This document shows, one piece after another, positions 37,098-41,384 of a stretch of 64,000 nucleotides of DNA. Source of the DNA: Desulfobaccales bacterium. Its GTDB lineage: Bacteria > Desulfobacterota > Desulfobaccia > Desulfobaccales > 0-14-0-80-60-11. The position numbers were made by a program, and so were the translations under genes. Below the pieces are notes generated by a model, which searched no databases, was not told the origin of the DNA, and saw nothing but the letters and a program-made list of their open reading frames with translations. The DNA lies in contig JBKQKO010000001.1 of the NCBI GenBank assembly GCA_052147455.1, positions 9,379 through 73,378 on the forward strand. Reading direction: 5' to 3'. Every line of letters starts with the position of its first letter. Within the stretch, counting starts at the first letter, position 1.

Positions 37098-37511
37098 ATG
37101 AAGGTCAAGGAAGTGATGGTCAAGGAAGTGGCCACCCTGGATGTTAACGACGAACTCAGTCTGGCCAACGACATCATGCGATTAGGGAGGATCCGGCATC
37201 TGCCGGTGGTGGATGGCGCCAGGCTGGTGGGGATCGTTTCGGAGCGGGACCTGTTTCGCAGTTCCCTGGCCCAGGCCCTGGGTTGCGGCGGCCAGACCCC
37301 TCGCGAACTGATGAAGGCCGTGCGCATTAAGGACATCATGGTGCGAGAGCTGGTCACTATCTCCCCGGAGCTAAATCTGTGCAAGGCCGTCAGGATGATG
37401 GTTGACAAGAAGATCGGCTGCCTGCCGGTGGTGGACCAGGACCGCCTGGTGGGCCTGATTACCGAAACCGATATTATGCTGCAATATCTTAAGGGCTGCG
37501 GCAGCGAATAA
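37098..37511 (+). CDS. CBS-pair domain protein
   Basis: There are two CBS motifs (HLPVVDGARLVGIVSERDL and CLPVVDQDRLVGLITETDI). The protein is 137 aa. Confidence 0.85.
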   Translation: MKVKEVMVKEVATLDVNDELSLANDIMRLGRIRHLPVVDGARLVGIVSERDLFRSSLAQALGCGGQTPRELMKAVRIKDIMVRELVTISPELNLCKAVRMMVDKKIGCLPVVDQDRLVGLITETDIMLQYLKGCGSE

Positions 37512-37544
37512 GGCGGTTTCCGGTTTTCGGTAAACAGGAAAAAA

Positions 37545-37586
37545 GGGCCTGGGAGAGCTTTACTCTCCCGGGCCCTTTTCCATTTT
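37545..37586 (+). terminator. Rho-independent terminator
   Basis: A 13-bp stem GGGCCTGGGAGAG-CTTTA-CTCTCCCGGGCCC is followed by TTTTCCATTTT. Confidence 0.75.
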
Positions 37587-37589
37587 CTA

Positions 37590-37651
37590 GTGTGATCCTT
37601 CAAAATCGCTAGGACATTTCAAACTACGGTTTTTTAACCCCCCTTTGAAAA
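37590..37651. repeat. ~197-bp MITE-like repeat, copy 1, left part (split by the IS insertion)
   Basis: It aligns with 56810-56873 and ends with TTTGAAAA. Confidence 0.85.
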
Positions 37652-37683
37652 CGGGATATTATACTTTACAAACCCAAAAGGAG

Positions 37684-38529
37684 GTGGTATGCTTTGACCA
37701 ATCAAATGAATTAAATCCTCTGCGATTGGTGAGCCTCTTGGAAATTTTACAAGTTCATGCAGATGTTTTTGTAATGTTAATGAGTACAATGCAAGTCATA
37801 GAGAGTACACTTCTAACTATAGCTAAACTACCAGCCGTTGATACTGATAAATTTATAAAATATAGAGACAATTTAGAAGAACCCTTAGCAGGTTTATTTG
37901 CAGAATGTAGGCAGTTAGAGTTGGATGGCTCTCTGCGAATGATTAATATAATAATTAATAAGTTACCCAATCTGGATGCAAGTGGATTAACAGCAAATAT
38001 AGCAACACTTCGGGAGATGATTTGGGCTGAGTTGGGGGATCGCTTTGTATTACACATACCCCAACAACGCCTTATATGGTTTGATAATGCAAATAGTTTT
38101 GGTAATGAAACTGTTATTGCCTTTAAAAAAGCTATTCCCGATATTACAGAAGCTGGAAATTGTTACGCGTTAGGTTTATATACCGCTTGTATTTTCCATT
38201 TAATGCGTGTTCTTGAACATGGCCTTGGTGCGCTCACAAAAGATGTTGACCTAAAATTCTATCGACAATCTTGGGGCACAATCATAAATAAGATTCGTGA
38301 GAAAATTGATGATGAAATAAAATTACTAAACAAACAACCTAAGGACCCTTCAAGAACTGACAGATTAACATTTCTTTCGCAGGCCGCAAAAGAATTTGTT
38401 TATTTTAAGGATGGTTGGCGTAATTATGCTATGCATGGTTTAGAAGAATATGATGCTCCAAAAGCCTTAAGCGTTCTTAATCATGTAAAAGCATTTATGG
38501 CTCATCTTTCAACTCGGTTGACTGAATAG
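37684..38529 (+). CDS. Passenger ORF: HEPN/Abi_C-like protein (Rx4H motif WRNYAMHG)
   Basis: The C-terminal half has a HEPN-like helix pattern (DITEAGNCYALGLYTACIFHLMRVLEHGL ... FKDGWRNYAMHGLEEYD). The track's TTG start at 37645 lies outside the element, so the start must be internal. GTG 37684 is a guess, and 37726 or 37774 are also possible. Confidence 0.55.
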   Translation: MVCFDQSNELNPLRLVSLLEILQVHADVFVMLMSTMQVIESTLLTIAKLPAVDTDKFIKYRDNLEEPLAGLFAECRQLELDGSLRMINIIINKLPNLDASGLTANIATLREMIWAELGDRFVLHIPQQRLIWFDNANSFGNETVIAFKKAIPDITEAGNCYALGLYTACIFHLMRVLEHGLGALTKDVDLKFYRQSWGTIINKIREKIDDEIKLLNKQPKDPSRTDRLTFLSQAAKEFVYFKDGWRNYAMHGLEEYDAPKALSVLNHVKAFMAHLSTRLTE

Positions 38530-38674
38530 TTTGTCGTCTCTTTTTAATAATTTTGCTCAATGCTTCTTCAAAGGCTTTTTTTGCATCGGGGTTGTCGATT
38601 CGCTTGGCAGCCTCAATAAACCGGGCATATTGCTCTTTGTCATCGGGTTCGGGTTTACTCTTTTTTGCATTCAT
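38495..38674 (-). CDS. Passenger small ORF (59 aa, below the ORF-track cutoff)
   Basis: I translated it by hand as MNAKKSKPEPDDKEQYARFIEAAKRIDNPDAKKAFEEALSKIIKKRRQTIQSTELKDEP. Its ATG overlaps the upstream stop (TAATG). Its 3' end overlaps the convergent HEPN-like ORF by 35 nt. Confidence 0.4.
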   Translation of the reverse strand: MNAKKSKPEPDDKEQYARFIEAAKRIDNPDAKKAFEEALSKIIKKRRQTIQSTELKDEP

Positions 38675-38955
38675 TAGTGCTGTTCTCCCTCTGTTTCAGG
38701 TTTGGCAGGACCCTTATAAGGCACGTATATAGCTGTTTCTGGTGGCGGGACTATCTTTTCGCCATAGTAGGTATAAAGGTTGCCAGTAAGCGTATCAAAG
38801 ACCAGAGTATGTACATAACCACCATATTTATTTTTTACTTGGTAGACTTCTTTCTTTAATTCATACCTCCCCTTAAGGGCTTGTAGACCGAAAATGAGCA
38901 GGAAAATGACCGCCAAAACCAGGATTGCAGGCTTAAACAATTTATCTATATTCAT
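38674..38955 (-). CDS. Passenger small membrane-anchored protein (93 aa)
   Basis: GAGGA lies 9 nt upstream of ATG 38955. An N-terminal TM helix (PAILVLAVIFLLIFGL) is followed by a Tyr/Pro-rich soluble part. Confidence 0.5.
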   Translation of the reverse strand: MNIDKLFKPAILVLAVIFLLIFGLQALKGRYELKKEVYQVKNKYGGYVHTLVFDTLTGNLYTYYGEKIVPPPETAIYVPYKGPAKPETEGEQH

Positions 38956-38982
38956 TTTTACGGTCCTCAAAATAGGATGAAT

Positions 38983-39273
38983 TTATGTCTTTTCACTTCG
39001 GCCCCGAATGGTATTGGGATCAAACCCGCCCGGAAGCCATTCGGGCGCATGTTCAAATGGAAGAATTCCATAAAGGACTCCAACAGCGTCGGCGGCAGAG
39101 ACAAGATAGGAAAGAGGTGCAGGATTTTCTTGAAAGTTCACTACCCAGACATTTTCTGCTAGGCATGAAACATTTGGGTATGTGTGTAATTCTACTTTTG
39201 CTGTCTTTAAAAAACGTTCCCATTTATTTGGTTCAACTCCTGAAATCCGAGCAACGAAAAGGGCGCTGTGCAT
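38983..39273 (-). CDS. Passenger hypothetical protein (96 aa)
   Basis: GGGAG lies 6 nt upstream of ATG 39273. It sits directly downstream of the transposase stop on the same strand. I recognise no family. Confidence 0.45.
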   Translation of the reverse strand: MHSALFVARISGVEPNKWERFLKTAKVELHTYPNVSCLAENVWVVNFQENPAPLSYLVSAADAVGVLYGILPFEHAPEWLPGGFDPNTIRGRSEKT

Positions 39274-39297
39274 AATTACTCCCATTCCTTTGATTTG

Positions 39298-40221
39298 TTA
39301 ATGAGTCGTTTGATAAGTGAGTCTTTTACCAACAACGCCACAAAGGAGTTTTTCGGCCCGCTCGGTATCGTCAATGCCCCTGGCAATACGCTTGCCATAG
39401 CGGAAGTCAAACTCGGCAAGATAGCGGTGAAGATGATGTTTCTTGCAATGCTGGTACACACCCTTCATACCACGTTTGAAGATGGAGAAAAAGCCCTCCA
39501 CGGTGTTGGTGTGAATGGAAGGATCGGCAAGCGAAACATACTCCCCGGTGCTGTGGCAGATGGCCTCATGCTCCGCAAAGTGTTCTTTCAGATATTTGTA
39601 TTGACCTGCATCATCGGTCATAACCCTGGCTTCATGGGCAATATTATCTTTCAAGATCGGGACAATGGTAGCGGCATTGAGGCTGTCAATTACGATGCTC
39701 CGGGCTTCGCCGGAATCCCGATCCACCAGGGAAAGAACCTTGCGCTTGTGGGCGTATCCACGGCGCTTGGGCATATTAGCTTCATTCCATAGAAAGGTTT
39801 CGTCAACTTCCACGATTCCACCATTGGAGCCAAAAGGAGTTAATACACCTTCTCTCATAGCTTCACGGATACGATGACCCATGAACCAGGCGGTTTTGAG
39901 AGTCACCCCAAGGGTTCTATGAAGCTGATTAGCACTAAAGCCCTTCTTGGATGCAGACAACAGGTATATCGCCTGGAGCCAGAGGCGCATAGAAACGTGA
40001 CTATCCTCAAAGATGGTCCCGATCTTGACGGTAAACTGTTTTCGGCAGGCATAGCACTTATAGAGGCCAATGCGGGTAGCCTTGCCGTTCATCTTGCTGA
40101 TACGCTCCCGGCTTCCACAGTGAGGGCAAACTGGACCGTTGGGCCAAATTTTGGATTCAGCGAAGGCATAGGCAGCTTCTTCACTGAGGAATTGGGGAGC
40201 CGAAAAAATTGATTTACTCAT
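39298..40221 (-). CDS. IS1595-family transposase (zinc-ribbon + ISXO2-like DDE domain)
   Basis: AAGGAG lies upstream of ATG 40221. The N-terminal zinc ribbon is CPHCGSRERISKMNG...YKCYACRKQFTVKIGTIFEDSHV, followed by LWLQAIYLLSASKKGFSANQLHRTLGVTLKTAWFMGHRIREAM and then the catalytic region (VEVDETF...). Confidence 0.88.
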   Translation of the reverse strand: MSKSIFSAPQFLSEEAAYAFAESKIWPNGPVCPHCGSRERISKMNGKATRIGLYKCYACRKQFTVKIGTIFEDSHVSMRLWLQAIYLLSASKKGFSANQLHRTLGVTLKTAWFMGHRIREAMREGVLTPFGSNGGIVEVDETFLWNEANMPKRRGYAHKRKVLSLVDRDSGEARSIVIDSLNAATIVPILKDNIAHEARVMTDDAGQYKYLKEHFAEHEAICHSTGEYVSLADPSIHTNTVEGFFSIFKRGMKGVYQHCKKHHLHRYLAEFDFRYGKRIARGIDDTERAEKLLCGVVGKRLTYQTTH

Positions 40222-40285
40222 GGCTATCTCCTTCTTATGAATCAAGATAGCACAGGGTTTGGGGTTTGTCAAGTATAATATTGCG

Positions 40286-40426
40286 TTTGAAAAAGGGGGG
40301 CAGGGGGGATTTAAAATAACCTCCTGAAATCCCCCTAAATCCCCCTTTTCCAAAGGGGGACTTTAATACCCTGGGAACTTAGGTTTTCATTTGATTTAAT
40401 GCCATGGTATTTACGAAGCCTAATAC
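40286..40426. repeat. ~197-bp MITE-like repeat, copy 1, right part
   Basis: It starts with the duplicated TTTGAAAA and aligns with 56866-57006. Confidence 0.85.
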
Positions 40427-40466
40427 CAGTTAATTTTTGACCGAAAATTGAAAACCGGAAACCGCC

Positions 40467-41384
40467 TTAAATATAGGTGAGCCAGTCCCGATAGCGCGGG
40501 TCCTGGCCCAGGACCAGGTCAAAGAAGGTGGTCTGCAGTTTCAGGGTGATGGGGCCAGGTTTCCCAGGGCCAATGACCCGGCCGTCCACTTCCCGGATGG
40601 GGGTGACTTCGGCGGCGGTGCCGGTGAGGAAGGCCTCGTCGGCCAGGTAGAGTTCATCCCGGGAGAAGAGGTCTTCCCTCACCGGCAAGCCCAGGTCCTG
40701 GGCCAGGGTGATGATACTGGCGCGGGTGATCCCCGACAACACCGAGGTCAGTGGCGGCGTGCGCAGCACCCCATCCGAGACGATGAAGATGTTCTCCCCG
40801 GAGGCCTCGGCCACATAGCCGTCGGTATCCAGCATCAGGGCCTCGTCAAAACCCAGGTAGGTGGCTTCCCGCTTGGCCAGGATGGAGTTGACATAGTTGG
40901 CCGTGGTCTTGGCCTTGGTCATCATGACGTTGACGTGGTGCCGGGTGAACGAGGAGATTTTGGCCCGGATACCATTCTTCAGGCCCTCCTCTCCCAGATA
41001 AGCTCCCCAAACCCAACTGATGAGGGCCACCCGGATGGGGTTGTCCTGGGGATGCAGGCCCATGACTCCTTCGCCCACAAACACCAGGGGGCGCAGGTAG
41101 GCGGATGCCTGGCCGTTCCGCCGCAGCAGGTCGCAGCAGACCTCCTCGATTAAGGAACGGCTGAAGGGGATCTCCATCTGCATAATGTGGGCGGAGTCGT
41201 ACAGCCGGCGGATATGCTCCTTCAGGCGAAAAATGGCGGTGCGGCCGTCCTGGCAGTGGTAAGCCCGGATACCCTCGAAGACCCCCAGTCCATAATGCAA
41301 AGAATGGGTCATGATGTGCACCTGGGCCTCAGCCCAGGGGATGAATTTGCCGTCCAGCCAGATATATTTAGCCTTCTCCACCAT
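40467..41384 (-). CDS. ilvE: Branched-chain amino acid aminotransferase (class IV)
   Basis: The protein is 305 aa, with [12 protein letters not shown] and [16 protein letters not shown]. Confidence 0.9.

Follow-up and report, generated by a model that had tools for sequence, protein, structure and literature searches.

A HEPN-like protein family associated with IS1595-family transporter insertion sequences, and a prfB-like site at the start of one of its genes

Why does an insertion sequence (IS), an element usually thought to encode only what its movement needs, carry a gene for a HEPN-like protein, and how is that gene expressed? The question is raised by an IS1595-family element in the window, the term used here for the whole stretch of 64,000 nucleotides of contig JBKQKO010000001.1 (Desulfobaccales bacterium) that was analysed. 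HEPN RNases act as effectors in numerous conflict systems, such as Cas13, Csm6, RnlA, HepT and the abortive-infection (Abi) proteins, and a preliminary description of this DNA had proposed that the gene inside the element encodes a protein of this kind. The comparisons described below indicate that a very large unnamed HEPN family appears to travel largely within a single IS1595 clade, where its position is fixed and no recognisable antitoxin accompanies it. Three points are new: the size and anonymity of this family, its systematic association with IS1595 elements of the ISNwi1 type, and a prfB-like start in one of its lineages. The protein would presumably be an RNase, and a toxin or defence function is put forward here as a hypothesis.

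The HEPN-like protein and its family

The reading frame of the HEPN-like gene on the plus strand of the window (37645-38529) stays open for 294 codons from TTG 37645 to the stop codon TAG at 38527-38529, and residues of the protein are numbered from 37645. An identical protein is recorded at NCBI as MGO9619814.1, a 'hypothetical protein' of a Desulfobaccales metagenome-assembled genome (MAG) called from TTG 37738. A word-indexed search has found 71 homologues with E-values as low as 6e-160, none of which bears a Pfam domain or a meaningful name. A profile search has shown that the family comprises 8,761 clusters (50% identity) at E ≤ 1e-3 and 4,865 clusters at E ≤ 1e-30, and no model of the family was found in Pfam, in NCBIfam or in any other library searched. 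The whole element has a 91%-identical copy in another genomic site, locus L001. Comparison of the two HEPN-like genes gives a ratio of nonsynonymous to synonymous substitution rates (dN/dS) of 0.18, similar in both halves of the gene, at a dS of 0.23, with no stop codon or further frameshift across 277 codons. The HEPN-like gene is real, conserved and under purifying selection, and is not a chance open reading frame (ORF).

An alignment of 58 homologues has shown that R188, E191, K255, R259 and H264 are the only invariant residues. In agreement with this, R259 and R188 are again invariant, and E191 and H264 at least 90% conserved, among 65 C-terminal domains translated from the genome loci. 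R259 and H264 belong to the sequence R-N-Y-A-M-H-G at residues 259-265 (38419-38439), in which the R259 codon occupies 38419-38421 and the H264 codon 38434-38436. The preliminary description had made its HEPN proposal depend on the conservation of this R and H, and both peptides on which it drew are encoded by the window, DITEAGNCYALGLYTACIFHLMRVLEHGL as residues 164-192 and FKDGWRNYAMHGLEEYD as residues 254-270. When the 58 members were scanned singly against Pfam, with matches kept to E ≤ 10 and 25 of the 41 matched families listed, 24 of them matched the HEPN family PF05168 below threshold, with a best E-value of 1.2e-4. Where scores are given they are 16.1 and 13.8 bits, below the curated cut-off of 22. 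These matches cover the C-terminal domain, as in P0024, where residues 154-271 align with profile positions 11-112 of 117, and apart from PF05168 no Pfam family matched more than two of the 58 members. The HEPN clan expected in the preliminary description is reached, below threshold, by homologues of the window protein but not by the window protein itself. Abi_C, which it had also proposed, was matched neither by the window protein nor by any of the 58 members among the 25 of 41 families listed, and DUF4145 was matched by one of the 58 members, at an E-value of 0.098, and not by the window protein. The C-terminal domain is not filed under either of these families, and both guesses appear to have been wrong.

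The AlphaFold2 model of the full-length protein is all-alpha and consists of two domains, with a predicted local distance difference test (pLDDT) score of 85.5. The C-terminal domain modelled alone has a pLDDT of 93.4 and a predicted template-modelling (TM) score of 0.88, and shows with high confidence the four-helix HEPN core that the preliminary description had looked for. Helix 1 comprises residues 161-175, helix 2 residues 179-200, helix 3 residues 235-259/262 and helix 4 residues 271-288, and an inserted helix of residues 210-229 lies between helices 2 and 3. Solved HEPN proteins are the best structural matches of this domain. Foldseek against the PDB places AF0298 first (2hsb; probability 1.00, TM score 0.62 on the target) and TT1696 (1ufb) next, and the top 50 matches further include 4nqf, HepT (7bxo, 6m6w), 1wol, 2q00 and the HEPN domain of RnlA; the E-values of these matches are weak, 0.02 at best. 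In the models R259, with N next to it, ends the long helix 3, H264 is placed in the loop after this helix and E191 belongs to helix 2, the arrangement of R, H, N and a helix-2 acidic residue that Anantharaman et al. have described for the HEPN active site (PMC3710099). The acidic residue of helix 2, often found as Ex3[KR], is E191 in MRVLE; LExGLR is common among members of the family, and the window protein has G at the +4 position. Since the conserved residues, the Pfam matches, the fold and the placement of the motif converge, the C-terminal part of about 140 residues is filed as HEPN: it is very probably a domain of the HEPN superfamily, forming a new family closest to the HEPN-T/PF05168 group. 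The HEPN-type C-terminal domain of the preliminary description has held up.

The N-terminal part, described earlier as helical, is a five-helix domain in the AlphaFold2 model and is conserved in the top 150 family representatives. No significant fold match was found for it. With the full-length model as the query, Foldseek returned only generic helical bundles from the PDB, such as vinculin and G-protein-coupled receptors, and nothing useful from BFVD; the model of the C-terminal domain alone was the informative query. The idea that the N-terminal domain is a second, degenerate HEPN domain was also tried, but hhalign detected no similarity between the sub-alignments of the two domains.

The IS1595 elements that carry the gene

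The earlier proposal that the gene rides inside an IS is borne out in the window, where an IS1595 transposase gene adjoins the HEPN-like gene and inverted repeats (IRs) bracket both. The transposase matches DDE_Tnp_IS1595 (1.4e-31) and Zn_ribbon_IS1595 (6.4e-15) of Pfam and transpos_IS1595 of NCBIfam (1.1e-52; 179 bits against a cut-off of 75), and its dN/dS relative to L001 is 0.12. The element is a block of 35-48% GC content within DNA of otherwise 60-65%, flanked by the convergent host genes for a CBS-domain protein (37098-37511, plus strand) and an ilvE-like protein (40467-41384, minus strand). Since L001, which lies beside a DUF559 gene, aligns with the window only between CCCCCC at 37638 and a point near 40300, the extent of the element is fixed by this homology. 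The two IRs of the window are imperfect, being 77% complementary, with 22-nt cores of GGATATTATACTTTACAAACCC and CAATATTATACTTGACAAACCC. The left IR contains the promoter-like sites TTAACC-17-TATTAT and TTTACA-17-TATGCT.

For the distribution of the gene, 80 loci were fetched from species-representative genomes and a transposase was sought within 6 kb. The sample covers Acidobacteriota, Alphaproteobacteria, Desulfobacterota, Chloroflexota, Verrucomicrobiota and Nitrospirota and includes one archaeal MAG. An IS1595 transposase is present within this distance in 40 of the 80 loci, and in 34 of these 40 it lies downstream of the HEPN-like gene and convergent with it, at a median gap of 365 bp. 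The transposases of the linked loci are 26-90% identical to that of the window, and across this range the HEPN-like gene keeps its slot and its orientation. A pairwise terminal-repeat search has found some 25-30 distinct elements in which both genes lie between IRs of the form GGnnAT(T/A)ATACTTGAC. These ends match ggnnatTAT, the end consensus of the ISNwi1 group in ISfinder; the transporter ISs of the IS1595 family make up the groups ISNwi1+ and ISPna2+ there. Perfect 8-bp target duplications flank the elements of L012 (ATAAAAAA), L057 (CGTTGGGC), L058 (AACTAAAA), L059 (CTAATGAA), L076 (GTGGTTAG) and L084 (TATACAAG), 8-bp duplications are also found in L068, L078 and L093 after the IS end is shifted by 1-3 nt, and the element of L003 splits a MacB/FtsX gene. 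The distances among the HEPN-like proteins and among the transposases show a weak but significant correlation (Mantel r 0.19; 1 of 2000 permutations). Transporter ISs (tIS) are known in the IS1595 family and, according to bioRxiv 10.1101/2021.05.26.445724, occur in no families other than IS1595 and IS66. A literature search found no paper linking HEPN to IS1595 elements or describing a HEPN-type gene as their recurrent companion.

The two ends of these elements differ systematically. Within the clade of at least 50% transposase identity, ACTTGAC, with its -35-like TTGAC, is retained without exception in the IR on the transposase side, and the HEPN-side IR shows the lineage-specific substitutions TTGCC, TTTGC, TTCCC, TTCAC, ATGCC and TTTAC. 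This asymmetry is seen in L012, L017, L026, L035, L076, L078, L093 and L105 as well as in the window.

Related elements show what else may occupy the inside of such an IS. In the sister element L112 (2498-4977; from plasmid p1318-1 of Roseomonas marmotae), whose transposase is 53.6% identical to that of the window, a 266-residue hypothetical protein and a PIN-domain protein are encoded in the cargo slot in place of the HEPN-like protein, and this PIN cargo suggests that the IS1595 clade may tend to carry genes of the RNase-toxin type. In Pseudosulfitobacter, an element of 55.6% identity is reduced to two genes, those of the transposase and of the small basic protein. In the window this small basic protein is strongly constrained (dN/dS of 0.09 relative to L001), and a 100%-identical NCBI protein is found on six contigs. 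A hidden Markov model (HMM) of this protein matches 28 transposase-linked loci; in most of them its gene and the HEPN-like gene overlap at the 3' end of the latter, also where cargo separates the small gene from the transposase gene. The matched proteins have about 50-70 residues and the motif ..Q/S-x-R-F-I-E-x-A-R..F..AF.KI..PK, are encoded by the last gene of the transposase operon and have no family model. Since the small protein is shared by relatives that lack the HEPN-like gene, its gene is a core IS gene, and the cargo slot lies between it and the transposase gene. A role as an antitoxin specific to the HEPN-like protein was considered: the small ORF usually abuts the 3' end of the HEPN-like gene, and one transposase-less copy that keeps the small ORF was seen. 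The idea was rejected, as the protein is also encoded in L111 (3669-3815), which has no HEPN-like gene, and in L112 (4591-4974) with its PIN cargo.

Three small ORFs lie downstream of the transposase gene on the minus strand of the window. The predicted membrane protein is 37% identical and shortened in L001, and other ORFs take its place in L002 and L003. The 100-codon ORF, which matched no family in Pfam, NCBIfam or PADLOC, is overlapped by an antisense ORF (38985-39275, plus strand) with a dN/dS of 0.49. Both of these antisense ORFs of about 100 codons are open in L001, and gene callers chose different strands in L091 and L092. No nucleotidyltransferase family of Pfam, NCBIfam or PADLOC was matched by the other four ORFs of the element, and no minimal nucleotidyltransferase (MNT) gene was called in the related loci inspected. 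Over the last 200 or so nucleotides of the HEPN-like gene (38290-38490), in which the Rx4H codons lie, the window and L001 show 100% identity, against differences of 5-14% per 90-nt block in the remainder of the gene. This identical 3' stretch could reflect recent gene conversion or an additional constraint, for example from antisense overlap.

Around the ends of the window element, no clean 8-bp target duplication was found with several choices of IS end, and the ends carry C-rich repeats. To the right of the right IR (40301-40370) there are extra C/G-rich repeats, GGGGGGCAGGGGGGATTTAAAA and AAATCCCCCTAAATCCCCCTTTTCCAAAGGGGGAC, which resemble another IR copy, and the IR-like debris extends to about 40370 (40320-40370). 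Such repeats are also present to the right of the right IR in L002 and L003, and AAATCCCCCCTGCCCCCC is found likewise at the left end of L001 and L049. Therefore, the true IS ends are blurred and any target duplication in the window is hidden. A perfect 20-nt inverted repeat, TAAGGCGGTTTCCGGTTTTC, at 37509-37528 and 40450-40469 covers the stop codons of both flanking host genes; its arms would be about 180 nt apart with the IS removed, around a terminator hairpin at 37541-37579. An Rfam scan of 37300-40600 found no relevant RNA family.

The start of the gene and the prfB-like site

The start codon of the HEPN-like gene was called unclear in the preliminary description, whose coordinates for the gene begin at 37684, an in-frame GTG, and three gene callers have indeed chosen three different starts. 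The strong Shine-Dalgarno (SD) sequence AAGGAGG reported there is present; it occupies 37678-37684, which places it one base further right than the 37677-37683 assigned to it. The mini-ORF ATG CTT TGA (37689-37697) is, as had been noted, out of frame and served by this SD, but it would not be an independent upstream ORF. In L003, L109 and L110 an in-frame ATG or GTG stands four bases after AAAAGGGGG, which itself comes after the left IR, and the window has the matching layout AAAAGGAGG TGGT ATG. Since the ATG of the window is positionally homologous to the starts of these relatives, the mini-ORF appears to be the 5' end of the gene itself, displaced by one base. The ATG is separated from the conserved TTG GTG AGC by 34 bases, that is, by 11 codons and one base, and therefore lies one base out of frame.

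A +1 slip on this mini-ORF would continue with GAC CAA TCA and yield M-L-D-Q-S-N-E-L-N-P-L-R-L-V-S-L, which aligns with the N-terminus of P0004 (MKEIELNSFCLVSL). The SD core GGAGG lies 7 nt before CUU. A longer stretch of 11 nt, AAGGAGGUGGU (AAGGGGGUGAU in L001), is complementary to the 3' end of 16S rRNA and reaches the spacer codon, and only if pairing extended over GGUGGU would it give the 3-nt spacing of prfB. The site shares with that of prfB the CUU UGA with C in the fourth position and a +1 frame that leads on into a long, conserved reading frame; a purine-rich SD-like stretch lies upstream, and a single spacer codon precedes CUU. The elements of the prfB site, including CUU UGA C, are taken from PMC13245932. 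The site differs from that of prfB in that the spacer codon is the initiator AUG, so that the shift would occur at codon 2, in that the SD core is 7 nt instead of 3 nt away, and in its confinement to one lineage of the HEPN-like gene.

The shifty-stop site is the same in the window, L092, L001 (636-656) and L091, which represent a single lineage, and a pattern search found no other among the loci covered. An exact 24-mer scan of metagenomes found no further copy of the shift site, and a protein-guided scan found only relatives of at most 54% identity. Since the site is shared and the gene has been under purifying selection since, expression would proceed either through the frameshift or from a downstream start, and the likely product begins either at ATG 37689, followed by a +1 shift, or at one of the codons TTG 37726, GTG 37729 and TTG 37738. 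Re-initiation or a downstream start is given about an even chance, and a programmed +1 shift at codon 2 is possible but rather unlikely. Such an RF2-type frameshift would be a simple and directly testable form of translational control outside prfB.

Table 1. Features of the window associated with the IS1595-family element, in order of position.
Feature	Position	Strand	Basis or remark
IS1595-family (ISNwi1-like) transporter IS, about 2.7 kb	37630..40316	.	ends approximate; AT-rich block, L001 homology, terminal IRs
Left inverted repeat (IRL), core at 37654-37675	37638..37690	+	weak promoter-like hexamers facing the HEPN-like gene
Strong extended SD AAGGAGGTGGT, putative ancestral start ATG and candidate prfB-type shifty stop CTT TGA C	37678..37698	+	a +1 slip would enter the long ORF at GAC 37696
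HEPN-like protein gene	37689..38529	+	long frame open from 37645; homologues, profile search, dN/dS
N-terminal five-helix domain (residues ~39-131)	37759..38037	+	AlphaFold2 pLDDT mostly >90
C-terminal HEPN domain (residues ~154-288)	38104..38508	+	AlphaFold2 model, Foldseek, sub-threshold PF05168
R188-V-L-E191 in helix 2: conserved HEPN acidic residue and invariant Arg	38206..38217	+	alignments
R259-N-Y-A-M-H264 motif	38419..38436	+	conserved in 58 and 65 sequences; position in model
Small basic protein, 59 residues	38495..38674	-	3' end overlaps the HEPN-like gene by 35 nt; last in transposase operon
Small predicted membrane protein, 93-98 residues, variable cargo	38674..38970	-	L001 comparison
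100-codon ORF, doubtful coding status	38983..39285	-	dN/dS 0.9
IS1595-family DDE transposase with N-terminal zinc ribbon, 307 residues	39298..40221	-	Pfam, NCBIfam
Right inverted repeat (IRR), core at 40262-40283	40247..40299	-	TTGACA-17-TATCTT facing the transposase gene

Possible roles and comparison with known systems

The fixed architecture of the elements, the PIN cargo of the sister element and the precedent of Tn3-family transposons, which hold toxin-antitoxin (TA) pairs, including HEPN-MNT, within the transposition module (PMC7157771), lead to the tentative preference, held at slightly less than an even chance, for a conflict-system role of the HEPN-like RNase that is tied to the element itself and is not that of random cargo. 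Solo copies of the gene that adjoin HipA and VapC genes on a Rhizobium plasmid point in the same direction. The HEPN-like protein would act as a metal-independent endoribonuclease, probably as a dimer joining two Rx4H motifs as in other HEPN RNases. Its activity may be restrained by the N-terminal domain, by low expression from the region of the left IR, or by head-on transcription from the transposase operon, which overlaps the 3' end of the HEPN-like gene. The HEPN-side IR, without the TTGAC that the transposase-side IR keeps in the clade of at least 50% transposase identity, would fit such restraint, and in the Desulfobaccales lineage an inefficient start is a further candidate. A toxin-like RNase of this kind would make the IS costly to lose, or would dampen the cell during transposition or stress.

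A number of observations weigh against this reading. Half of the sampled loci (40 of 80) have no adjoining transposase, although 8 of these have too little flank to judge. Among plasmid records, 110 have a relative of the transposase and only 6 have any HEPN-like match; since most plasmid relatives of IS1595 lack the HEPN-like gene, the gene is optional for transposition. In the two HEPN-like plasmid records inspected (H1 and H2) the gene has no adjoining IS1595 transposase. The window protein itself matched nothing in Pfam (E ≤ 1), NCBIfam or PADLOC, and sequence profiles of the whole family (A1, A3) and of its C-terminal domain (A4) retrieved no solved HEPN structure from the PDB. The promoter-like sites in the IRs are no more frequent than in shuffled sequence. 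No antitoxin specific to the HEPN-like gene was found in the element, while a constitutive toxin would need one, and only 2 of 49 transposase-less copies keep the small ORF.

The main rival reading is that the gene is a single-protein abortive-infection or anti-phage gene, with an N-terminal sensor and a HEPN effector, that would hitch-hike on the IS and benefit the host. The architecture resembles that of single-chain HEPN Abi proteins, in which an N-terminal helical domain is combined with a HEPN domain with intact Rx4H. Such a gene requires no antitoxin, which fits the absence of a specific partner. Half of the family lacks a transposase, some copies lie in accessory or TA-rich regions, and there is a weak match to the phage protein family phrog_32483 (E 2.8e-4). 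However, no PADLOC model was matched, Abi_C was not seen and DUF4145 was limited to its single marginal member, and the HEPN-like gene keeps its slot and orientation across transposases of 26-90% identity whereas true cargo of the IS clade varies, so that a hitch-hiking defence gene is considered fairly unlikely. It is also conceivable that the HEPN domain is a regulator of the element, which would bind or process the transposase mRNA, or bind a nucleotide, to set the frequency of transposition, a task that accessory proteins of ISs perform in other families. The convergent, tightly spaced genes with overlapping 3' ends, both directly behind IRs, the retention of the -35-like TTGAC on the transposase side and its degradation on the HEPN side in the clade of at least 50% transposase identity, and the weak co-divergence of the two proteins are consistent with regulation. 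There are close IS1595 relatives without the HEPN-like gene and many copies of the gene without any transposase, however, and Rx4-6H is invariant here, whereas HEPN domains that only bind ligands usually lose the motif (PMC3710099); a regulatory role is accordingly judged improbable.

In the Desulfobaccales lineage the gene could alternatively be a decaying passenger that has suffered a one-base insertion after its start codon, CUU UGA C then being a coincidence. Where the relatives have an ordinary start, the ATG that follows the SD is displaced from the frame by one base, no in-frame ATG, GTG or TTG lies within 37687-37725, the site is present in one lineage only and gene callers disagree on the start. 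Against decay, two copies in different genomic sites, at a dS of 0.23, carry the same lesion and yet retain a dN/dS of 0.18 in both halves and 277 intact codons; an alignment with the N-terminus of P0004 persists upstream of the next in-frame start (ELNSF versus ELNPL); and a random insertion would have a chance of about 1e-3 of producing CTTTGAC at the first stop that follows it, a post hoc estimate from base composition. Decay is thus very improbable. The most specific version of an element-tied role would be that the HEPN-like RNase is not cargo but an old accessory module of the IS1595 clade, controlling retention of the element or the RNA of the host during transposition, and is produced by an RF2-type +1 shift in the Desulfobaccales lineage. 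This combination is a long shot. If true, production of a transposon-borne RNase would be coupled to the UGA-termination capacity of the cell, nature would have put the prfB shift site to use a second time, and ISs would have an accessory function of a new kind. If the protein is an active RNase, small ISs would spread a toxin- or defence-like activity over soil and sediment phyla (Acidobacteriota, Alphaproteobacteria, Desulfobacterota, Chloroflexota). The family merits a Pfam or NCBIfam model of its own.

Among known systems, the HEPN-T/PF05168 proteins AF0298 (2hsb) and TT1696 (1ufb) are the best fold matches, and PF05168 is the only Pfam family matched by many members. They share with the window family the four-helix core, the acidic residue of helix 2 and the basic residue that ends helix 3. 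In contrast to them, the window family inserts a further helix after helix 2 and before helix 3, possesses a conserved N-terminal helical domain of about 100 residues, has no adjoining nucleotidyltransferase, and keeps a strict R-N-x3-H, whereas proteins of the AF0298 type often lack the H (PMC3710099). HepT-MntA, a type II/VII TA system of which a copy lies in the Tn3-family TnSod9, is a case of a HEPN RNase toxin inside a transposable element (PMC7157771), and HepT (7bxo, 6m6w) is among the fold matches. The window system differs in that no MNT is present in the element or in the related loci inspected, in that its protein is twice the size of HepT, and in its carrier, which belongs to IS1595 and not to the Tn3 family. 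With other tIS of the IS1595 family the element shares a zinc-ribbon DDE transposase, ends of the form GGnnAT(T/A)AT, 8-bp duplications in its relatives and extra genes between the IRs. It differs from them in that one gene family occupies the same slot across transposases of 26-90% identity and in that the small basic protein is a further core gene. The single-chain HEPN Abi proteins (Abi_C PF14355, AbiD/AbiF, AbiU2 and AbiV) and DUF4145 (PF13643) resemble the HEPN-like protein in their R-N-x3-H-type motif, their occurrence on mobile DNA, their stand-alone nature with extra helical parts and their lack of an obligatory antitoxin. The family is set apart from them in that no Abi_C match was seen among the families listed, DUF4145 was matched by one of 58 members at an E-value of 0.098 and no PADLOC model was matched.

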